A stretch of DNA of 64,000 nt from assembly GCA_041665505.1 (NCBI GenBank), contig JBAYIR010000001.1, positions 220,392-284,391 of the forward strand, written 5' to 3'. Below are positions 6,690-26,947 of the stretch, piece after piece. Made by a program: the position numbers and the translations under genes. The stretch is from Patescibacteria group bacterium. Lineage in GTDB: Bacteria; Patescibacteriota; Patescibacteriia; UBA1558; GWA2-36-10. The first letter of the stretch is position 1; each line of letters begins with the position of its first letter. The notes beneath the pieces were generated by a model. It worked only from the letters and a program-made list of their open reading frames with translations. It had not been told where the DNA came from and did not search any database.

Positions 6690-6763
6690 TCGGGGATCGT
6701 CTAATGGTAGGACAACGGGTTCTGGTCCCGTCAATTGGGGTTCGAGTCCCTATCCCCGAGCCA
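6690..6763 (+). tRNA. tRNA-Gln (anticodon CUG), 74 nt, with encoded CCA
   Basis: Manual fold. Acceptor TCGGGGA/TCCCCGA, D-stem GTCT/GGAC, anticodon stem ACGGG/CCCGT, loop TTCTGGT (anticodon CTG), T-arm TGGGG-TTCGAGT-CCCTA, discriminator G, then CCA. Confidence 0.75.
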
Positions 6764-8473: not shown

Positions 8474-10534
8474 ATGAAAAAAGAAAAAAATAAAAATAAA
8501 GTAGCCTTATTTGATAGATTTGGTTTTACCCCAATCTATTTATTAGTTTTACTTTTGGTATCTGCTATAGCCTTAGTGGTCATTATATCCAGAATTGATA
8601 GTAATAATAACCAAATTAGTTTTAATATTAATACGAAAATAAAAGATAATACTTTTAAAAAATTTAAATCAGTTGATGAATTTAAGGCCTATATAGAGGA
8701 TATGGACCAGACAGCTTATTATGGTGGTATGGGGATGGTTAGAAATTTTGCTCAATCAGAAACAATGATGCTAGATGAAGCTCAAGATATAGCCATGCCT
8801 GCGCCAGAGCTTGTTGTTGATGGAAATGGACTTGCACCAGATAGAGTTTCTGATACCAATGTCCAAGTGTTGGGGATTGACGAGCCAGATATAGTAAAAA
8901 CAGACGGTAAACAAATTTATTTTTCTGATAATATAGGGAACTATTGGATTTCTAATCCTATGCCAGCTGTTCGTATGATGGAGGATTCTTTTATTGATAT
9001 AGACCCAAGTGTAGAATTTCAAAATCAAGTTAAGACAAATATTATTAATGCCTGGCCAGCTAGTGATTTAGCTCTCAGCTCAAAAATTGATTTAGCTGGT
9101 GATTTACTGCTAGTAAAGAATATCTTAGTAGTTTTCTCTGGGCAAGATATTGTAGCTTATGATGTCTCAAATCCCAAAGAGCCAAGTAAAAAATGGAGTA
9201 TAAAATTGGATGAACAAACATACTTAATTACCTCTAGACTATATGGGGACAAAATTTATTTAGTCACCCAGACTAGCTTAAATAGAAGTAATCCTTGTCC
9301 AATCAGCCCCTTGGCTCTACAAGACAAGAAAATGATTGTGCCTTGTATGGATATTTATTATCCAAATAATTCTAGCTCAGTTGATTCTACTTTTACGGCT
9401 ATTAGTTTAAATCCTGAATCTGGCGAATTTGAGGATCAAATTTCCTTTGTCGGCAGTCAAAGTACAGCTAATATCTATATGTCAACTGATTCATTGTATA
9501 TTGCCTATACTCAAAATTTAAATATGTTTGATTACATGTTTAAATTTGTAAATACCGAGCTAAATGATTTGGCGCCAGCTAATGTCTTAGCTAAATTAAA
9601 TAAGCTTAATTCTTATGATATTAGTAGTCAGTCTAAATTAAATGAGTTACAAACTACACTTGATGAATGGCTACAAACTTTAGGTCAGGATGAAATGCTT
9701 AAAATGCAGACTGAAATGCAAAATAGAGCAGCCAAATATTATGAGGAAAATAAAAGAGCAGTTTTAAGCACTGGTATTGCTAAAATTGATATTGCCAATT
9801 TAGATATCAAAGCTAGTGGCAGTGTGCCTGGTTATTTACTCAACCAATTTGCTTTAGATGAATATAATGGTTATTTGAGAGTAGCCACTACTATTGGTGA
9901 GAGTTGGGGCTGGGGGATAAGTGCTGGTGGTACTCAAGTCAATGATGTCTATACTTTGGATAGTAATTTGAAAATAAGCGGATCTATTTTAGATTTAGGT
10001 TTAGGTGAGCGTATTTATGCCGCTAGATTTATGGGCGACGTTGGATATTTGGTTACTTTTAAACAAACTGATCCATTTTATGTTTTGGATTTATCAAACC
10101 CCAAAGAACCAAAGATGCTTGGTGAATTAAAAATTCCAGGCTATTCATCATATTTACATCCAATAGCTGACGGTAGAATACTAGGAGTCGGCATGGAAGA
10201 AGGTAAAGTAAAACTTTCATATTTTGATGTTTCAAATCCTTCTAATCCACAAGAAATTGCCAAATATTCTCTTGATGATTATGGTAGTGATGTTTTGTAT
10301 AATCACCATGCTTTTTTACAAGATCCAAAACATCAAGTATTTTTCTTGCCATCTTATAATGGTGGCTATGTATTTTCTTATGCCAATGAGCAGTTGGAAT
10401 TAGTCAAAACTGTGGCGGCCACTGATGCTAAACGGGCACTTTATATTGGCGATTATTTATATATTATAGCCAATGATTATGTGGCAGTGCTAGATGAAAA
10501 TAATTGGGAGAAGGTCAAGGATTTAGCTTTATAA
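8474..10534 (+). CDS. Secreted beta-propeller domain protein (PF09826-like)
   Basis: N-terminal TM/signal sequence, then 686 aa with repeated beta-propeller-like blades. This is a typical CPR/archaeal surface protein family. Confidence 0.45.
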   Translation: MKKEKNKNKVALFDRFGFTPIYLLVLLLVSAIALVVIISRIDSNNNQISFNINTKIKDNTFKKFKSVDEFKAYIEDMDQTAYYGGMGMVRNFAQSETMMLDEAQDIAMPAPELVVDGNGLAPDRVSDTNVQVLGIDEPDIVKTDGKQIYFSDNIGNYWISNPMPAVRMMEDSFIDIDPSVEFQNQVKTNIINAWPASDLALSSKIDLAGDLLLVKNILVVFSGQDIVAYDVSNPKEPSKKWSIKLDEQTYLITSRLYGDKIYLVTQTSLNRSNPCPISPLALQDKKMIVPCMDIYYPNNSSSVDSTFTAISLNPESGEFEDQISFVGSQSTANIYMSTDSLYIAYTQNLNMFDYMFKFVNTELNDLAPANVLAKLNKLNSYDISSQSKLNELQTTLDEWLQTLGQDEMLKMQTEMQNRAAKYYEENKRAVLSTGIAKIDIANLDIKASGSVPGYLLNQFALDEYNGYLRVATTIGESWGWGISAGGTQVNDVYTLDSNLKISGSILDLGLGERIYAARFMGDVGYLVTFKQTDPFYVLDLSNPKEPKMLGELKIPGYSSYLHPIADGRILGVGMEEGKVKLSYFDVSNPSNPQEIAKYSLDDYGSDVLYNHHAFLQDPKHQVFFLPSYNGGYVFSYANEQLELVKTVAATDAKRALYIGDYLYIIANDYVAVLDENNWEKVKDLAL

Positions 10535-12305: not shown

Positions 12306-13988
12306 TTGTTGATTACAAAATATATGAATAAATATAGTGAAATTTCAAACAAAGGGCAGGTTACAAGTACCAAAATAAGGGTCACTTTTGGCATTATTTT
12401 TTTACTGACTATTTTTGCGGCGCTAATAGTTTGGCCAAGTGCTCCTGGCTGGTTTGGTAAATTTAAGGTTCATTTGGGGCTTGATTTACAAGGTGGCACA
12501 CATTTGGTCTATCAGGCTGATGTTTCTGCTCTAGAAGGAGCTGAAAAAAGAGAAGGTGTCCAAGCATTACGTGATGTGATAGAACATCGTGTTAATGCTT
12601 ATGGTGTCTCAGAATCAGTAGTACAGACAAATTTTAGTGGGGATAATTATCGTATTATTGTAGAGCTAGCTGGTGTAAAAGATGCTAATGAGGCTATTTC
12701 TATTATTGATAAAACTCCACATCTAGAATTTAAAACTCAAGGTGAGGCTGTTTTTGATGAAAGTGCTCAAGCTAAACTAGATGAGATTAAAGTCAAAGCC
12801 AAAGAAGTGTTGGCTAGAGCTCTAGCTGGTGAAGATTTTTCGAAATTAGCTTCAGAATATAGTGAAGATACTGCTTCCGCTGCTAGTGGTGGTGATTTGG
12901 GTTATGTGGCTAAAGGTTTATTTGTGCCCGAATTTGATAAAGTTATTTTTGATGAACTTCAATCCAATCAAATTGCTCCAGAATTAGTGGAATCTCAATT
13001 TGGCTATCACATTATTAAAAAAATAGATCAACGATTAAATGATAAAGGGGAAATAGAAGTACACGCCGCTCATATTTTATTTCAAAAGACTGATGCTGAC
13101 TTAGCTAATGTTGTTTGGCAAGATGTTGGTTTGACTGGCCGTGAAGTGGCTAAAGCCCAATTAAGTTTTGAACAAAATACTCAATCTCCATTGGTCCTTT
13201 TGTCATTCAATGATAATGGTAAAGAAATTTTTTCTAAAATTACTAGTGAAAATGTTGGTAAACCAATTGCTATATTTTTGGATAATGAAATAATTTCTAG
13301 CCCAGTAGTTAATGAAGCAATCAAAGATGGTCAAGCTCAAATTTCAGGTAGTTTTACTATTTCTGAAGCTAAAGAATTAGTTAAAAATTTAAATTTAGGA
13401 GCTTTACCTGTGCCAATAGAACTTATTAGCCAAACTACTATTGGAGCCAGTTTGGGAGCAGAATCATTAGATAAAAGTCTTTTGGCAGGACTAATTGGTC
13501 TGATAGCGGCTGCTTTGTTTATGATTATTTTTTATAGATTACCAGGATTATTATCTGTTTTAGCTTTAGTTGTCTATTCAGTATTATCTTTAGCAATTTT
13601 TGAATTAATACCTATTACTATGACTTTAGCTGGGGTAGCTGGTTTCATATTATCTATTGGTATGGCGGTAGATGCTAATGTGTTGATATTTGAGCGTACT
13701 AAAGAAGAACTTTATGAAGGTAAAAGCCTTAATACTTCTATAGAAAATGGTTTTACACGCGCCTGGTCTTCTATTAGAGATTCAAATATTTCGTCAATTA
13801 TTACTTGTGTGATATTAGCTTGGTTTGGTACTTCAATTGTCAAGGGTTTTGCTATTACTTTGGGTATTGGTATACTTGTTTCTATGTTCTCGGCCATTAC
13901 TGTTACTAGAACTTTTTTAAGATTAATAGTCAATAAGCGTTTGGAAAATAAATTAGGCTTATTTGGAGTAAAAAAAGCAAAGGAATAA
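12306..13988 (+). CDS. secD: Protein translocase subunit SecD with an inserted parvulin-type PPIase domain
   Basis: SecD N-terminus (LGLDLQGGTHLVYQAD) and C-terminal TM bundle. Residues about 150-240 carry a PpiC/parvulin signature (GGDLGYVAKGLFVPEFD...FGYHIIKK). Confidence 0.85.
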   Translation: MLITKYMNKYSEISNKGQVTSTKIRVTFGIIFLLTIFAALIVWPSAPGWFGKFKVHLGLDLQGGTHLVYQADVSALEGAEKREGVQALRDVIEHRVNAYGVSESVVQTNFSGDNYRIIVELAGVKDANEAISIIDKTPHLEFKTQGEAVFDESAQAKLDEIKVKAKEVLARALAGEDFSKLASEYSEDTASAASGGDLGYVAKGLFVPEFDKVIFDELQSNQIAPELVESQFGYHIIKKIDQRLNDKGEIEVHAAHILFQKTDADLANVVWQDVGLTGREVAKAQLSFEQNTQSPLVLLSFNDNGKEIFSKITSENVGKPIAIFLDNEIISSPVVNEAIKDGQAQISGSFTISEAKELVKNLNLGALPVPIELISQTTIGASLGAESLDKSLLAGLIGLIAAALFMIIFYRLPGLLSVLALVVYSVLSLAIFELIPITMTLAGVAGFILSIGMAVDANVLIFERTKEELYEGKSLNTSIENGFTRAWSSIRDSNISSIITCVILAWFGTSIVKGFAITLGIGILVSMFSAITVTRTFLRLIVNKRLENKLGLFGVKKAKE

Positions 13989-13992
13989 ATAT

Positions 13993-14898
13993 ATGTATAA
14001 TATTATTGGTAAAAGCAAAATTTGGCTTGGTATTTCTGGATTTTTAGTTTTAACTTCTATAGTTTTTTTGGCTATTTGGGGTTTTAAACTGGGTATTGAT
14101 TTCACAGGCGGTAGTATTTTAGAGGTGTCTTACTCCCAGCAAAGACCAACTATGGAACAAGTCCAAAATATTTTAGCTCCTTTGGAATTAGGTAGTTTAA
14201 AAATACAAGCAGGCGGTGAAAATGACTATATATTGCGTTTTGAAGAAATAGAGGAAACTACTCACCAAGATATTTTAGACAACTTGTCAGCTATTAAAGT
14301 TGAAGGTGTAGAAGAAAATCAATTATCTGAATCACGCTTTGAGGCTATTGGTCCAGCAGTGGGTGAAGAATTAAAGACTAAAGCCATACAGGCTATAATA
14401 ATAGTGTTAGTGTTTATTGTTTTGTATATTGCTTATGCTTTTCGTAAAGTATCTAAACCAGTTGCTTCTTGGAAATATGGCTTAGCAGCCATTGTGGCCT
14501 TAGCCCATGATATTTTAATAGTAGCTGGGGTGTTTTCAGCTTTAGGCTATTTTATGGGTGTAGAGATAGATACTTTGTTTGTTACAGCCTTATTAACTAT
14601 CCTTGGTTTTTCAGTTCATGATACTATTGTTACCTTTGATAGAATTAGAGAAAATTTGTTTCAAACTCATGACAAAGAATTTAAAGAAATAGTCAATATT
14701 AGTATTAATCAAACTATCACTAGATCTATTAATACTTCTTTTACCACTCTTTTGGTACTTTTGGCCATTTATTTCTTTGGTGGAGAGAGCATTAGATACT
14801 TTTCCTTGGCTTTAATTTTAGGTGTTATATTCGGTACCTACTCTTCAATTTTTATAGCTTCACCACTTTTGATACTTTGGAACAAGAGCAAAACATAA
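13993..14898 (+). CDS. secF: Protein translocase subunit SecF
   Basis: GIDFTGGSILEV and an RND-like TM bundle, directly downstream of secD. Confidence 0.88.
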   Translation: MYNIIGKSKIWLGISGFLVLTSIVFLAIWGFKLGIDFTGGSILEVSYSQQRPTMEQVQNILAPLELGSLKIQAGGENDYILRFEEIEETTHQDILDNLSAIKVEGVEENQLSESRFEAIGPAVGEELKTKAIQAIIIVLVFIVLYIAYAFRKVSKPVASWKYGLAAIVALAHDILIVAGVFSALGYFMGVEIDTLFVTALLTILGFSVHDTIVTFDRIRENLFQTHDKEFKEIVNISINQTITRSINTSFTTLLVLLAIYFFGGESIRYFSLALILGVIFGTYSSIFIASPLLILWNKSKT

Positions 14899-15044: not shown

Positions 15045-16148
15045 ATGTCTGGAATTTTAGACCAAGTAATTACATCAAAGCACTTGTCAAAGCTGTCTGA
15101 TTTTGATCCCCATCAAACTTTAGAAAATATTTTGACTGCTTTATCAGAGCGTGAGCAAGAAATCATAAAAATGCGTCACGGCTTGTCTGGTTCGGAGAAA
15201 AAAACTCTTGAGGACATTGGAAAACAATACGATGTTACTCGTGAAAGAATTAGACAAATTGAAAATACTTCTCTGAAAAAGATCAATAAAAACTTCAATC
15301 AAACTATTTTAAAAGAGATTGAAGATATAGCTAATGCTACTTTGTCTGAGCATGGAGGTTTGATGTCTGAGGATAATTTGATAGCCGAACTATTAGCTAT
15401 GCCTGGAGATTCAGAAGCTAATAGGGCTGCTATTAGGTTTATATTAAATCAACTTTTAAATCATAGATTTTATTTTGTCAAAGAATCAAAACAGCATAAC
15501 AGTTTTTGGAAGACTCCAGAAGCTAATGTAGATTTATTTCATGATACTATAGATAAGGTGCGCACCCTAGTTAATACTCATGGTGACCCACTAAGTTTAG
15601 AAGAACTTATAAATAAAATTCAAGAAACTGAATTCTATACCAATAATAATGATTTGACTGATAAAGTAGTAATAAACTTTATTACCGTCACTAAAAAATT
15701 AGAAGCCAATCCTTATGAAGAATGGGGTTTGGTGGAGTGGCCAAGCATTACTCCGCGTAGAATGAATGATAAGATATATTTGGTGCTTAAGAAAAAAGGT
15801 CAGCCAATGCACTTTACTGAAATTGCTGACACTATAAATCAAATGTCTTTTGACCATAGACAAGCTTATCCAGCTACAATCCATAATGAGTTAATTCTAG
15901 ATAAAAAATATGTTTTAGTTGGCCGTGGTATTTATGCTTTAAAAGAATGGGGTTATAAACCAGGGGTAGTAGCTGACGTCATAGCCGATATTTTAAAAGA
16001 TAGTGACAAGCCACTGACTAAAAAAGAAATAACACAAGCCGTTTTAGAAAAACGTATGATCAAAGAAACTACCATTACCCTAGCCCTAATGAATAAAGAT
16101 AGATTTGCTAGGGATGAAAGAGGTCGTTACTCATTAAAAACTGAATAA
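15045..16148 (+). CDS. Sigma-70 region-4-like HTH fused to a C-terminal HARE-HTH domain (putative transcription regulator, not a canonical sigma factor)
   Basis: Region 4 signature near the N-terminus (TLEDIGKQYDVTRERIRQIENTSLKKI). The C-terminus is HARE-HTH-like (HFTEIADTINQ...GRGIYALKEWGY). Confidence 0.5.
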   Translation: MSGILDQVITSKHLSKLSDFDPHQTLENILTALSEREQEIIKMRHGLSGSEKKTLEDIGKQYDVTRERIRQIENTSLKKINKNFNQTILKEIEDIANATLSEHGGLMSEDNLIAELLAMPGDSEANRAAIRFILNQLLNHRFYFVKESKQHNSFWKTPEANVDLFHDTIDKVRTLVNTHGDPLSLEELINKIQETEFYTNNNDLTDKVVINFITVTKKLEANPYEEWGLVEWPSITPRRMNDKIYLVLKKKGQPMHFTEIADTINQMSFDHRQAYPATIHNELILDKKYVLVGRGIYALKEWGYKPGVVADVIADILKDSDKPLTKKEITQAVLEKRMIKETTITLALMNKDRFARDERGRYSLKTE

Positions 16149-16263: not shown

Positions 16264-17754
16264 ATGGAAATAACATTTGACTTTTCAGCATTATACGCGG
16301 CTATGGATCAAGGCTACGGAGCCATGGCTTGGTATTTCTTTAAAAACGGGGGGTGGATTATATATTTTTATGTAATTTCTCGCGGTATTTTTGAGATTTG
16401 GCATTTAAATCAAAATATAAAATGGTTTAATACCAATAAATTTGTGATTATCGCTATAGATGTACCAAAAAGTACCGAGCAAACTCCTAAGGCTGTGGAA
16501 CAACTTTTTTCTACTGTTTCTGGTGCTCACAATCCTTTGAATCTTAGAGAAATATATAAAGAAGGACAGTTTCAGCTTAGTTTTTCTTTTGAGATAGTTA
16601 GTATTGACGGCTATGTACAATTTTTAATTCGTACACCTAGCCAATGGCGCGATTTGATAGAAAGCTCTATTTATTCCCAGTATCCAGATGCAGAAATAAC
16701 CGAAGTGGAAGATTATGTTGATACAGTACCTGATCAATACCCAAATGAAACACACAATATTTGGGGTACGGAAATAATTTTAGCTGCCAAGGATGTTTAT
16801 CCTATTCGCACTTATACAGCTTTTGAAGATAATGTTTCAGGCGAATTTAAAGATCCAATAGCCTCACTGATTGAGACTATGAGTAAAATTCAGCTTGGTG
16901 AACAAGTCTGGGTTCAGATTATAGTCAGACCAACTGACACTAAATGGATTAAAAGAAGTCTGAAAGAAGCTTATAAAATTGCTGGTAAGAAATTTTCTGA
17001 GAAAAAAAGTTTTTTGTCTAGCATAATAGATCCTATTACTGGTTTATTTTTCTTGTCCACTGGTGAGCTTTGGGCTTGGCCACAGGATTTGACTGCTAGT
17101 ACTTCTAAAGCTAAAAAAGATGATATGCCATCTATGATGCTTCATTTAACTCCCGGTGAAAAAGGAGCAATAGAAGCCATAGAAGCTAAAGCTAGTAAAA
17201 CTGGTTTTGAATGTAAAATTCGTTTAATATATATATCACCCAAAGAAAAATTTTCTTCGGCTAGAGTCATATCGGCAGTTTTTGGATCCTTTAAACAATT
17301 CAATACGCTAGATTTAAATGCTTTTAAACCTGATCCAAGAACTAAAACTAAAATTAATTATTTTTTTATAAAGACTCTTACAAATTGGCGTAAAAGATCG
17401 ATTATGTCGGCTTATAAAAATCGTAGTGGAGCTATGGGGCATAATTATTTTATATTAAACACCGAAGAGCTAGCTACTATTTGGCATTTCCCAAGCTTAC
17501 TAATCAAAGCTCCACTACTCCAACGAACTGAAAGTAAAAAAGCTAATGCACCTTATTCACTGCCTATTTCTAAAATAGAAGAGAGTGATAAAAGTAAAGT
17601 GACAGAAGATTTAACTAGACAATTAGTCACTCCTAATTTTAATGTTGATATAGCTAATAAGTATTTTGAAGAACGTTTTGCTAAAAAAGATAATAGTGGA
17701 AGTCAAATACCAAAACGTAAGGGGCAAGCACCACCTAATTTACCAACTTCTTAA
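16264..17754 (+). CDS. N-terminal (membrane/accessory) half of a split VirB4/VirD4-like ATPase
   Basis: Homologous to residues about 60-400 of the fused protein at 2028-4490 (EIVSIDGYVQFLIRTPSQWRD aligns with EIVSVGGFTNFYVATPSVYRD). Ends ...QAPPNLPTS* and aligns with ...AAPPVNMPTE in the fused copy. Confidence 0.6.
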   Translation: MEITFDFSALYAAMDQGYGAMAWYFFKNGGWIIYFYVISRGIFEIWHLNQNIKWFNTNKFVIIAIDVPKSTEQTPKAVEQLFSTVSGAHNPLNLREIYKEGQFQLSFSFEIVSIDGYVQFLIRTPSQWRDLIESSIYSQYPDAEITEVEDYVDTVPDQYPNETHNIWGTEIILAAKDVYPIRTYTAFEDNVSGEFKDPIASLIETMSKIQLGEQVWVQIIVRPTDTKWIKRSLKEAYKIAGKKFSEKKSFLSSIIDPITGLFFLSTGELWAWPQDLTASTSKAKKDDMPSMMLHLTPGEKGAIEAIEAKASKTGFECKIRLIYISPKEKFSSARVISAVFGSFKQFNTLDLNAFKPDPRTKTKINYFFIKTLTNWRKRSIMSAYKNRSGAMGHNYFILNTEELATIWHFPSLLIKAPLLQRTESKKANAPYSLPISKIEESDKSKVTEDLTRQLVTPNFNVDIANKYFEERFAKKDNSGSQIPKRKGQAPPNLPTS

Positions 17755-17756
17755 AT

Positions 17757-19538
17757 ATGGAAAACAGAATTACAACTTTTGCTGAAACAAATTATAGAAA
17801 TTCCAATGTTAGATTTGGCATAAAAACTGATGACCGTCGTCGTCATATGTATTTTATTGGTAAAACTGGTATGGGTAAGTCTACAGTTTTGGAAAATATG
17901 ATTATTCAAGATATTCAAGACGGTAAGGGAGTTTGTGTAGTAGATCCTCACGGCGATTTAGTAGAGAAGGTCATTAATTTTGTGCCCTCTAGTCGTATTA
18001 ATGATGTAATATATTTTAATCCAGCTGACTTGGATTTTCCCATTGGTTTTAATGTTTTGGAAAAAGTAGATGCTAGCCAAAGGCATTTGGTTGTATCGGG
18101 ACTAATTGGTGTTTTTCAGAAGATTTGGGCTGATTCATGGGGTCCTAGATTGGAATATGTACTCCATCATGCTATTTCAGCTCTCTTAGAGTATCCTGGC
18201 TCCACTTTGCTTGGTATTATGAGAATGTTGACCGACAAAGCTTTTAGAAAAAGAGTAGTGGAAAAATTGTCTGATCCAGTAGTTAAAGCCTTTTGGATAG
18301 AAGAATATTCTAAATATCCAGATAGGTTTCAATCCGAAGCTATTGCTCCTATTCAAAATAAAGTTGGTCGTTTCCTTTCCTCAGCTTTGATTAGAAATAT
18401 ATTAGGGCAAGTCAATTCATCTTTTTCTATGAGAGATATCATGGATGGCCAAAAAATATTACTTTTGAATCTGTCTAAAGGTAGAGTAGGTGAAGATAAT
18501 TCAGCACTACTGGGGGCGATGATGATTACCAAAATTCAATTAGCCGCCATGAGTAGAGTTGATACTCCGGAAGAAGAAAGAAAAGATTTTTATCTATATG
18601 TAGATGAATTTCAAAATTTTGCTACAGATTCTTTTGCTAATATTTTATCTGAGGCTAGAAAATATAAACTTAATCTTATTATTGCTCACCAGTATATTGA
18701 ACAAGTAGAAGAAAATATTGCAGCAGCTGTTTTTGGTAATGTTGGTACTTTGATAGCTTTCAGAGTCGGTGCGGCTGATGCTGAATTTTTGGAAAAAGAA
18801 TTTTTTCCAACTTTTACTCAAGAGGATTTGGTCAATCTTTCCAAGTTTGAAATTTATATCAAACTAATGATTGATGGTGTAACCTCAGAAGCTTTTTCAG
18901 CTAGAACCTTGCCACCAGTAGCGATGACGGAAGAATTTATAGACATTAAAGAAAAAATAATCAGGGTGACTAGAGAAAGATATGCCAAACCAAGAGCAGT
19001 TATAGAAGATAAAATTATTCGTTGGTCAGAAGGCAGAGGAGAAGATGATATAGATAAGATTCCTGATAGATTAATCAATGAAGCTGTTATCGATAAGTCT
19101 CTCGCTAAAGACATAGCCCCTGTGAGTAGAGAAAATTCAGCTAGTAAAGCCAAGAAAAAAAGAAGAAAATCCAAAGACACTGGTTTTAGTAAAGATGTTA
19201 TTTGCGATTTGTGTGGTAAACAAACTACTATAAATTTTGATCCCGATCCAACTAAACCTATTTATTGCAGAGAGTGTCTAGACCTTTCTAGAGCTGGTAA
19301 AGTTCCGCCACCATCAAGTATTAAAATAATTTCTGATGACGGGCCAGTTGAAGAATTTACTTCTCTAGCTGATGCTTTGAAAGGCAGAAAAGTGACTGTC
19401 AAAAAAACTGAAAATTTAGAAAGTAAGTCAGAAGAGGAAGAAAATATAAAACAGAATGAAGATTTAAGCTCAGAAAAAATTAAAAAAGATGACCAGTCGG
19501 CTGAAGATTTAAAGCCCGGTCAAGTAATAAAATTTTAA
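17757..19538 (+). CDS. ATPase half of a split VirB4/VirD4-like P-loop ATPase, with a C-terminal acidic/Lys-rich tail and a CxxC...CxxC zinc ribbon
   Basis: RRRHMYFIGKTGMGKS, VVDPHGDL, LYVDEFQNF, AHQ. The C-terminus has CDLCGK...CRECL. The start lies 2 nt after the stop of the upstream ORF. Confidence 0.7.
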   Translation: MENRITTFAETNYRNSNVRFGIKTDDRRRHMYFIGKTGMGKSTVLENMIIQDIQDGKGVCVVDPHGDLVEKVINFVPSSRINDVIYFNPADLDFPIGFNVLEKVDASQRHLVVSGLIGVFQKIWADSWGPRLEYVLHHAISALLEYPGSTLLGIMRMLTDKAFRKRVVEKLSDPVVKAFWIEEYSKYPDRFQSEAIAPIQNKVGRFLSSALIRNILGQVNSSFSMRDIMDGQKILLLNLSKGRVGEDNSALLGAMMITKIQLAAMSRVDTPEEERKDFYLYVDEFQNFATDSFANILSEARKYKLNLIIAHQYIEQVEENIAAAVFGNVGTLIAFRVGAADAEFLEKEFFPTFTQEDLVNLSKFEIYIKLMIDGVTSEAFSARTLPPVAMTEEFIDIKEKIIRVTRERYAKPRAVIEDKIIRWSEGRGEDDIDKIPDRLINEAVIDKSLAKDIAPVSRENSASKAKKKRRKSKDTGFSKDVICDLCGKQTTINFDPDPTKPIYCRECLDLSRAGKVPPPSSIKIISDDGPVEEFTSLADALKGRKVTVKKTENLESKSEEEENIKQNEDLSSEKIKKDDQSAEDLKPGQVIKF

Positions 19539-24994: not shown

Positions 24995-25507
24995 TTATTT
25001 TGGTACACTCACACAAGAAAGAGAGGTATAACCCTCACCATCACATTCATCTATACGAGGCTGGGTCTCTAAATTAAACTGTAAAAGATAATAATTTTTA
25101 GGAGAACCAATAATCTTTTGGTACAAATATAAATAAATAACTTGATTTGGTTCATTTTGATTAACTACAGCATTAATTGGATCGCGTGGCATAGCATCTA
25201 AACCAGGTAGCCATTGATTATCTATAGGGTGGTTATAATCAGCACTGATACAGCCACTTATACTTAGTAGACCAGAACATCTGCCATCTTCGGCAGGATA
25301 ATCATCGCCTGTAGTATAATTATAAATTTCCAAAGCTTTACGAATTTGAGTAATATCGCTTAGTCTTCTAGCATCTCTAGCCTTAGCTTTAAAATGGTTT
25401 AAATTAACTACTGCCGCAGTAGAAATAATACCAATAATAGCAATTACTACCAATAATTCCACTAAAGTAAAACCTAGTTTTTGTCTTTTAAAATGGTATA
25501 AAAGCAT
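24995..25507 (-). CDS. Type IV pilin/pseudopilin (prepilin with N-terminal methylation motif)
   Basis: KLGFTLVELLVVIAIIGIIS class III signal and hydrophobic helix. C-terminal Cys pair. Confidence 0.8.
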   Translation of the reverse strand: MLLYHFKRQKLGFTLVELLVVIAIIGIISTAAVVNLNHFKAKARDARRLSDITQIRKALEIYNYTTGDDYPAEDGRCSGLLSISGCISADYNHPIDNQWLPGLDAMPRDPINAVVNQNEPNQVIYLYLYQKIIGSPKNYYLLQFNLETQPRIDECDGEGYTSLSCVSVPK

Positions 25508-26152: not shown

Positions 26153-26833
26153 TCAGACGTCCGCTATGATGCGGTCGCCGTATTCACGACGGAAGGAGTT
26201 GATTTGCAGAAGCAGAGCCTCCAAGAGATGTTCTCCAACATAGATTCGAGTTGGAGACTGCCAGTGTGAGGACTGCTCCATGAGCTCCAAGAGGTATCTG
26301 GCCAAAGGCACATATTCGCGAATGGTTTCGTTTATTTGCTTGATTTGAAACTCTGGGTCAGCCTTGAATCCCAGAGTGCGAAGATTGGCTACCCGATCAG
26401 CTAGTTTGAGAATAATTACCTCAATACTGCCAGCTTCTCGCATTTGACGGATATAAGAAAGCTTATCCCGCTTATAATCTTCGCCTTTACTCAAAAGTTC
26501 AACCCAATAGCGGACTGTGGAGCCAAAAAGCCTCTCAATCTTGTCCAAGCTGAGTTTGTCAGCCTCTACAGCATCATGAAGCCAAGTCACAACATTCATC
26601 TGCCAGTCGTCTTTGATACCCAGTTCGCAGCTGACTAAATCAGCTACATCACGCAGGTGTTTGAAGTAGTAGGTGACACCATCACCACGATACTCACCAC
26701 GGTGAGCCCATTTCCCCAGACGGTAGGCGCAGACCATCAAGCGTGCTTCTTCAGGGTCATTGATGTAACCCTGAAAACGAACCAAATAGCGTTCGTAGCC
26801 GCGCATTTCCTCAGGTTTTTTTCTGACTTTCAT
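26153..26833 (-). CDS. HD-domain (p)ppGpp hydrolase, SpoT/Mesh1-type small alarmone hydrolase
   Basis: LHDAVED and KLADRVANLRTL match the RelA/SpoT HD hydrolase motifs. Strong SD AAGGGGGT before the internal Met (MKVRKK), so the start was trimmed from the ORF-track coordinate 26869. Distinctly higher GC than the genome. Confidence 0.7.
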   Translation of the reverse strand: MKVRKKPEEMRGYERYLVRFQGYINDPEEARLMVCAYRLGKWAHRGEYRGDGVTYYFKHLRDVADLVSCELGIKDDWQMNVVTWLHDAVEADKLSLDKIERLFGSTVRYWVELLSKGEDYKRDKLSYIRQMREAGSIEVIILKLADRVANLRTLGFKADPEFQIKQINETIREYVPLARYLLELMEQSSHWQSPTRIYVGEHLLEALLLQINSFRREYGDRIIADV

Positions 26834-26947
26834 GTTCGTTACCCCCTTGTTGACGTGAATTGTAAACAACCAAAGTTAATGTCAATAGTTATACTATAGT
26901 CCAAAATTAATGTCAAACATATATTTGTTGATAAATTAGCTAAAATA

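Follow-up and report, generated by a model that had tools for sequence, protein, structure and literature searches.

How exported proteins are handed over to folding catalysts is debated; the systems being studied include PpiD/YfgM, SurA, PrsA and the Mycoplasma dome complex. We analyzed a 64,000-nucleotide stretch of DNA from a Patescibacteria group bacterium (contig JBAYIR010000001.1, positions 220,392 to 284,391 of the forward strand; hereafter, the window), in which an open reading frame (ORF) at 12306-13988 encodes the translocase subunit SecD. An initial annotation had read this ORF as a SecD with an inserted parvulin-type peptidyl-prolyl isomerase (PPIase) domain. This was borne out at exactly those coordinates by Pfam matches to SecD and Rotamase domains and by NCBIfam TIGR01129 (secD; 398.5 bits against a cut-off of 244.4, model positions 1-397). 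What that annotation missed is that the insert is a circular permutant of the parvulin family, in which the histidine strand that normally opens the domain has moved to its end. The window protein is the housekeeping SecD of a member of the Patescibacteria (Candidate Phyla Radiation, CPR) related to Komeilibacteria, and its extra module probably serves exported proteins as a built-in foldase or holdase.

The inserted parvulin and its strand order

The identity of the insert is clear from its Pfam matches, which lie far above their cut-offs: Rotamase_3 (PF13616) spans amino acids (aa) 143-242 (E 2.1e-23, 83.5 bits against 22.5) and Rotamase (PF00639) spans aa 153-240 (E 1.9e-20, 74.1 bits against 21.7). 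The PpiC/parvulin signature motifs quoted in the initial annotation were located at aa 196 (GDLGY) and aa 232 (FGYHII). The domain model is confident, shows the four-stranded sheet packed by four helices that is the parvulin fold, and matches parvulin structures. Residues are numbered here from the TTG at 12306, which is six more than in P0001, a 100% identical NCBI protein of 554 aa named just 'protein translocase subunit SecD [Patescibacteria group bacterium]'. The probable start is the ATG at 12324 (M7), as indicated by P0001 and by a homologue consensus that begins MxKY. The parts of the gene are as follows.

12306..13988, + strand: secD coding sequence, stop included (ORF list; 560 aa counted from the TTG at 12306)
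12366..12431, + strand: first transmembrane helix (TM1), about aa 21-42 (helix 15-36 of the AlphaFold2 model in P0001 numbering)
12561..12740, + strand: N-terminal part of the P1 base (Pfam SecD_1st, aa 86-144), aligned to Thermus up to residue 121 ('LEFRIV')
12741..12758, + strand: linker 1, aa 146-151 (predicted local distance difference test, pLDDT, <50 at P0001 143-148; variability continues to about aa 159)
12759..13037, + strand: parvulin core, aa 152-244, ordered alpha1-alpha2-alpha3-beta-alpha4-beta-beta, with D197 (GGDLG), F206/P208/F210, S230 and H235 (FGYHII)
13038..13085, + strand: hairpin loop, aa 245-249, and displaced beta1 IEVHAAHILFQ, aa 250-260, with H256 (rearranged alignments; models)
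13086..13115, + strand: linker 2, aa 261-270, leading into the P1 head (variable; pLDDT <50 at P0001 259-262)
13116..13412, + strand: P1 head subdomain, aa 271-369 (Pfam PF22599, 267-369), aligned to Thermus from residue 160 on
13416..13940, + strand: TM2-TM6, aa 371-545, including D456 in GMAVDAN (Pfam; Thermus alignment)

The canonical parvulin order, beta1-alpha1-alpha2-alpha3-beta2-alpha4-beta3-beta4, was not found in this domain. In both structure models the core runs through the FGYHII strand, makes a five-residue turn and returns as the strand IEVHAAHILFQ to form a hairpin; no strand lies ahead of alpha1, and the histidine-bearing equivalent of beta1 comes after beta4. The Pfam Rotamase models match the window SecD only from profile position 10 or 24. 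When residues 246-264 were placed ahead of 149-243, Rotamase coverage grew from 10-96 to 1-96 and the Rotamase_3 score rose from 86.4 to 95.7 bits. In this rearranged order the insert can be aligned over its full length with SurA P2, an active domain, and IEVHAAHILFQ pairs with TEVHARHILLK. Structural alignments of canonical parvulins to the insert span just 79-90 residues, and the sole solved structures with a significant full-length match are 8HM3 and 8HM4, a periplasmic PPIase of Bacteroides fragilis, which may have the same beta1-last connectivity. Since beta1 is displaced to the end, the two termini of the domain lie side by side, an arrangement that suits insertion into another protein. 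The hairpin and the homology also predict that H235 and H256 are close in space. As to origin, the profile of the insert family runs colinear with SurA 167-274, a stretch that extends from the P1 core through the linker to beta1 of P2. The insert would thus correspond to a stretch of a tandem parvulin offset by one strand, and it may have reached its permuted order by a duplication-and-truncation route. The possibility that the trailing strand opens the P1 head, or is ordinary SecD sequence, was considered and rejected, because insert-free SecDs have about 15 residues here without the HIL motif and because the strand aligns to beta1 of SurA P2.

The remainder of the protein is a conventional SecD. 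Pfam recognizes Sec_GG (aa 49-73), SecD_1st (86-144), SecDF_P1_head (267-369; PF22599, E 6.4e-31) and SecD_SecF_C (371-542), the last three all above their cut-offs. The AlphaFold2 model has the expected layout of TM1, a large P1 made of base and head, and then long helices (378-535). D456 (D450 in P0001) aligns with D340 of Thermus thermophilus SecDF, the conserved proton-path aspartate of TM4, and is invariant in a conservation set of 73 homologues that are 55-100% identical. Judged by its sequence, the SecD motor looks intact. SecD topology is established from the T. thermophilus SecDF structure (3AQP). Given this topology and TM1, the segment up to about aa 375 lies outside the cytoplasmic membrane, and the module, inserted between TM1 and TM2, is extracytoplasmic.

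The site of insertion was defined by comparison with SecDs of standard length. The P1 base ends in a conserved connecting strand, LEFKTQ (aa 140-145; model strand 134-139 in P0001 numbering). T. thermophilus SecDF (3AQP) aligned to aa 30-148 and 276-542, so that 127 residues replace about 38 Thermus residues, and in L013, a CPR SecD that lacks the insert, residues 126 and 142 mark the end of SecD_1st and the start of the P1 head, leaving a connector of about 15 residues. On both comparisons, the insertion falls in the connector of roughly 15 residues between the 'LEF(K/R)' strand, which ends the base, and the mobile head. The proposal that the insert is absent from canonical SecD therefore holds. 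Its size had been put at roughly 90 aa; an inserted block is indeed present, but it measures about 125 aa (146-270) once the displaced strand (250-260) and two linkers are included. A mere resemblance of ordinary P1 sequence to a rotamase was ruled out by the alignment with canonical SecD and by the matches to parvulin structures.

The length of the base-head connector ranges from 15 to about 260 residues across 80 species representatives. Unrelated inserts of 110-200 aa, some of them rich in Pro, Ala and Glu, occupy it in six of these SecDs (L018, L042, L063 and L068, all Dehalococcoidia, and L060 and L079), and none of the six inserts matched a parvulin-core model built from the insert family. 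Because unrelated inserts occur there in Dehalococcoidia and other non-CPR SecDs, the connector is a general insertion hotspot.

Conservation, distribution and double inserts

The residues expected of an active parvulin are strongly conserved. The active-site set of parvulins (a His pair, Asp or Cys, and Ser or Thr) is present as H256, D197, S230 and H235, which we take to be the equivalents of Pin1 H59, C113, T152 and H157 and to form the Asp-His-His-Ser/Thr set of non-phospho-specific parvulins. Active non-phospho-specific parvulins with this set include SurA P2, PrsA and Par10. Both H235 and H256 are present in 73/73 homologues, followed in the displaced strand by I257 (72/73) and L258 (71/73). 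The S230 position holds Ser or Thr in all 73, position 197 is occupied by Asp (62 homologues), Glu (10) or Asn (one), and the hydrophobic residues at F206, P208 and F210 are nearly invariant. The major-residue frequency is 0.72 in the parvulin core and 0.74 in the displaced strand, similar to the 0.72 of the P1 head. In contrast, linker 1 is hypervariable (frequency 0.30, entropy 2.95 bits) and linker 2 is variable (0.44). The divergence of the insert tracks that of the host SecD (r = 0.77). The conserved core and strand, the hypervariable linkers and this correlation indicate a selected, folded and vertically inherited domain held on flexible tethers.

The architecture recurs across related lineages, as had been suggested for checking. 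A protein search of a 5.8-billion-protein collection (sources NCBI, JGI, ENA and Logan) was evaluated on its best 120 matches; all 120 carry Rotamase Pfam domains and are annotated simply as SecD, and they come from Komeilibacteria, Parcubacteria, Nomurabacteria and unclassified Patescibacteria. The combination of SecD and Rotamase domains is visible in precomputed Pfam annotations. We also surveyed 80 GTDB species representatives among the matches listed, all at most 52% identical, with the closest species left out of this set. Ten of the 80 have a parvulin insert. Five are single (Buchanan-, Kerfeld- and Moranbacteria and others), all with the trailing H-I-L strand, and five are double (Parcubacteria and Peregrinibacteria), with the same insertion site. 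No parvulin was found in the remaining representatives, which include Saccharibacteria, Ryan-, Niyogi-, Taylor-, Uhr- and Daviesbacteria and Gracilibacteria, nor in any Chloroflexota, Cyanobacteria or Melainabacteria representative among the 80. The SecD-parvulin architecture is therefore widespread in some Patescibacteria lineages, and most other CPR and non-CPR SecDs are without it. In a neighbor-joining tree of the SecD parts alone, drawn without support values, most insert-bearing proteins fall into one CPR neighborhood with single and double forms interleaved, which suggests a single CPR sub-clade containing both forms.

Five loci labelled Lysobacteraceae or 'uncultured Gammaproteobacteria' have a SecD that groups with those of Patescibacteria. 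Four of them (L003, on JAACEG010000012.1, L007, L035 and L052) were grouped by the rough tree and one outside the tree (L025) by its 51% tblastn identity to the query. L003 and L007 carry the CPR-type parvulin insert. These five bins are probably mislabelled or contaminated.

The double forms have two parvulin cores in the base-head connector, at the following positions.

L006, 2761-4881: double-parvulin SecD
L007, 2707-4857: double-parvulin SecD
L009, 1558-3735: double-parvulin SecD
L012, 865-4062: double-parvulin SecD
L014, 2878-6324: double-parvulin SecD

The first core has lost the beta4 His in all five and the second has kept it in all five. The strand that follows the first core bears a His in 5/5, and the last strand in 2/5 only. 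The second core is ordered canonically: it comes after a conserved 'SHLLL/RHILI' strand, and its Pfam match begins at profile position 1. The likeliest reading of this pattern is a degenerate permuted parvulin with a canonical one nested in its hairpin. In the two Peregrinibacteria (L012 and L014) the second core has Ala or Val at the position of the catalytic-type Asp. A conserved pair of cysteines in the beta1-alpha1 loop of the second parvulin was seen in L006 ('CHNEVENC'), L007 ('CYQGSTGC') and L009 ('CYTNITGC'); this pair is not present in the single-insert family and may form a disulfide in the extracytoplasmic domain.

The permuted module also exists apart from SecD. The uncharacterized metagenomic protein P0193 (456 aa) has the same module, a core followed by 'EVEVRVSHILFQ' with no beta1 ahead of the core, which scores as high as the SecD inserts do (123 bits compared with 117-122). 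It is a single-pass protein (TM at about 61-84) with the module at aa 104-220, then about 230 residues without a Pfam match, and it has no SecD domains. P0193 is a stand-alone, PrsA-like version of the permuted module. The profile search that retrieved it scored whole sequences, so that multi-parvulin SurA/PpiD-like proteins came out on top; among the matches listed were three SecDs and P0193. All the SurA/PpiD-like multi-parvulin proteins inspected were in canonical order.

A candidate foldase at the translocon exit

In the SecDF model the P1 head binds the emerging unfolded chain and swings about the base-head hinge under proton flow (3AQP, 5XAN), and the association of SecDF with SecYEG is established (5MG3). 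Since the insert lies inside P1, this association would put the module near the Sec exit, and two flexible tethers at the base-head hinge would keep the parvulin beside the path of the substrate. Based on these observations, we predict the following mechanism. A complete parvulin, inserted in the base-head connector, sits at the outer face of the membrane on two flexible and poorly conserved linkers, where it may move together with the head. As the head captures and pulls unfolded polypeptide from SecYEG, the tethered domain would bind the same chain beside the exit, where it would catalyze prolyl cis/trans isomerization, act as a holdase, or both. The protein would thus be a covalent counterpart of PpiD, SurA, PrsA and Mdp444, foldases that are recruited to the translocon non-covalently elsewhere.

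Several observations weigh against this proposal. SurA P1 keeps its histidines though it is reported to be inactive; with this precedent, and with Glu at position 197 in 10/73 homologues, a sequence pattern by itself is no proof of catalysis. The full-length model, with a predicted template modelling score (pTM) of 0.48 and low-confidence linkers, does not fix the placement of the module relative to the head, SecY or SecF. The same connector carries unrelated inserts in other phyla, and insertion there is thus tolerated in general. Finally, CPR genomes are reported to encode PrsA, with annotations across CPR classes in a published survey (PMC9166423), so that the module may work in addition to PrsA instead of taking its place. 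No second parvulin gene was found within the 64-kb window or within 3 kb on either side of 80 related loci. As the initial annotation proposed, the module could plausibly replace PrsA-like chaperones in part.

The chief alternative to a built-in foldase is that the module is a non-catalytic domain for substrate binding, holdase activity or docking, which extends the polypeptide-binding surface of the P1 head. We consider this rather unlikely. Translocon-associated parvulin domains that serve as chaperones only are known in PpiD and SurA P1 (PMC9643414), position 197 is occupied by Glu or Asn in some homologues (10/73 and 1/73), and the copy without the beta4 His is retained in all five double-insert SecDs, so degenerate copies are evidently either tolerated or of use. 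Nevertheless, the His pair and the Ser/Thr (each 73/73) together with the Asp/Glu (72/73) form the pattern of an active parvulin, which a binding surface would not require. That same active-site conservation also speaks against a module that acts on SecDF itself, either by biasing the swing of the P1 head between its F and I forms or by mediating contacts with SecYEG, YidC or the cell wall. The position of the insert, exactly at the base-head connector beside the hinge strand, would be apt for such a regulator, and this connector accepts large lineage-specific inserts in other phyla. However, hypervariable, low-confidence linkers fit a free tether better than a rigid hinge modulator, and in P0193 the same permuted module is found on a single-pass anchor without SecD. 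We therefore regard regulation of SecDF as improbable. An artefact, whether a chimeric assembly, a fusion to a neighboring PPIase gene created by a frameshift, or ordinary P1 sequence of rotamase-like appearance, can be set aside almost entirely: the ORF is single and uninterrupted, the insert is flanked on either side by SecD sequence, and the domain model confidently matches parvulin structures. More than 120 homologues from independent assemblies (NCBI, JGI, ENA and Logan) have the same architecture, and on this ground an assembly or fusion artefact was rejected.

In a literature search that lay mostly outside subscription journals, we found no paper on a SecD-parvulin fusion and none mentioning a circularly permuted parvulin. 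The parts, SecD and parvulin, are known; their arrangement is undescribed, conserved and mechanistically suggestive. A wider interpretation can be offered tentatively, with the odds somewhat against it as a whole. The CPR SecD-parvulins could be a Rosetta-stone fusion, evidence that the SecDF P1 head is a direct site of action for parvulin foldases while proteins are exported, as has so far only been proposed for SurA-SecDF of E. coli and Mdp444-SecD of Mycoplasma. The beta1-last parvulin could be a distinct, undescribed structural subclass, common to an essential Bacteroides PPIase and a CPR membrane protein that stands alone. It could also have served, in some lineages, as the scaffold for a second, canonical parvulin nested in the beta4/beta1 hairpin.

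If the proposed function is correct, several consequences follow. A predicted, apparently active parvulin in the base-head connector would give independent evolutionary support for foldases at that exact spot, and the SecD-parvulin would offer a compact, single-polypeptide system in which coupled translocation and folding can be tested. The permutation is a clean natural case of a domain that was re-wired to become insertable. For annotation, thousands of entries named only 'SecD' hide a second function that is predicted to be enzymatic.

The secDF locus and related systems

The partner subunit gene lies immediately downstream.

13993..14898, + strand: secF, 4 nt downstream of secD (TIGR00966, 299.5 bits against a cut-off of 160; Pfam)

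The genes around secD encode UppS, a beta-propeller protein, a methyltransferase, Ddl, SecD, SecF, a protein with sigma-70 region 4 and HARE-HTH domains, a VirD4-like ATPase and MnmA. Such housekeeping neighbors are in keeping with a core chromosomal secDF locus in a CPR genome of low guanine-cytosine (GC) content (about 33%).

Directly 3' of secF, the ORF at 15045-16148 encodes a 367-aa protein that combines an N-terminal sigma-70 region 4 with HARE-HTH (aa 243-286), an unusual pairing. The stretch at 16264-19538 encodes a 496-aa protein without a Pfam match and then a TrwB/VirD4-like coupling ATPase of 593 aa that bears a treble-clef zinc finger at its C-terminus; the pair is an uncharacterized two-gene module just downstream of secDF. 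An ORF at 24995-25507 (- strand) has a type IV pilin-like N-terminus ('GFTLVELLVVIAIIG'), and at 8474-10534 (+ strand) a membrane-anchored beta-propeller protein of 686 aa is encoded (PF09826, E 4e-119). These last two are likely to be Sec-exported surface proteins and are potential clients of the SecD foldase module. Between 26001 and 28000 the local GC content is 0.42, compared with about 0.33 elsewhere. This region contains the ORF 26153-26869 (- strand, 238 aa), which by eye resembles a putative HD-domain hydrolase from its '...WLHDAVEAD...' motif and may have been acquired horizontally. In a search of the GC-rich region at 26-28 kb no Rfam family matched, with E values up to 0.1 allowed. 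A single tRNA gene at 6690-6760 (RF00005, 56.9 bits) is the sole RNA family match of the window.

Among characterized systems, the closest to the window SecD as a whole are the SecDF proteins of T. thermophilus and Deinococcus radiodurans (3AQP, 5YHF, 5XAM/5XAN/5XAP), which share TM1, the GG motif, the P1 base, the P1 head and TM2-6. The phmmer E values to the two are 1e-70 and 3e-66, and Foldseek matches, which include 5XAN and 3AQP, reach E values down to 6e-25. The window protein differs from both by its roughly 125-residue parvulin between base and head, and in having SecD and SecF as separate genes.

Among solved structures, the only significant full-length match to the module itself is the B. 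fragilis PPIase, which is a soluble periplasmic protein of 427 aa with large N- and C-terminal regions and which stands outside SecD. This PPIase is reportedly essential and is said to be the target of BfUbb, a bacterial ubiquitin toxin. The comparison links a protein of uncultured bacteria to a PPIase targeted by a bacterial ubiquitin toxin.

The foldases recruited to the translocon in other bacteria are built differently. SurA of E. coli is free in the periplasm and has an N/C chaperone domain and tandem parvulins, P1 and P2, each of which is beta1-first. It binds the holo-translocon, and AlphaFold puts its parvulin domains on the SecDF P1 head (PMC9987972). PrsA, a lipoprotein of Firmicutes, and PpiD-YfgM of E. 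coli, which associates with SecYEG (PMC9643414), are separate polypeptides that are anchored by a lipid or by a transmembrane helix of their own, with a canonical parvulin within an N/C chaperone domain. In the window protein, by contrast, SecD itself serves as the anchor and there is no chaperone domain: no SurA_N, PrsA or PpiD chaperone-domain match was found by Pfam, and the flanks of the insert are P1 elements of SecD and short variable linkers. The SecD insert may therefore act like the PrsA, SurA and PpiD foldases, though it is no member of that family. Mycoplasma pneumoniae, which is genome-reduced, couples parvulin/PrsA-like foldases (Mpn444/Mdp444, Mpn436 and Mpn489) to SecDF and SecYEG. 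Its PrsA-like Mpn444/Mdp444 crosslinks to SecD, and a dome over the translocon is seen in in-cell maps (bioRxiv 10.1101/2024.09.05.611430, 10.1101/2025.04.25.650208). In M. pneumoniae the coupling is non-covalent and is made through large trimeric lipoproteins, whereas in the window SecD a single domain has been inserted into the subunit itself.

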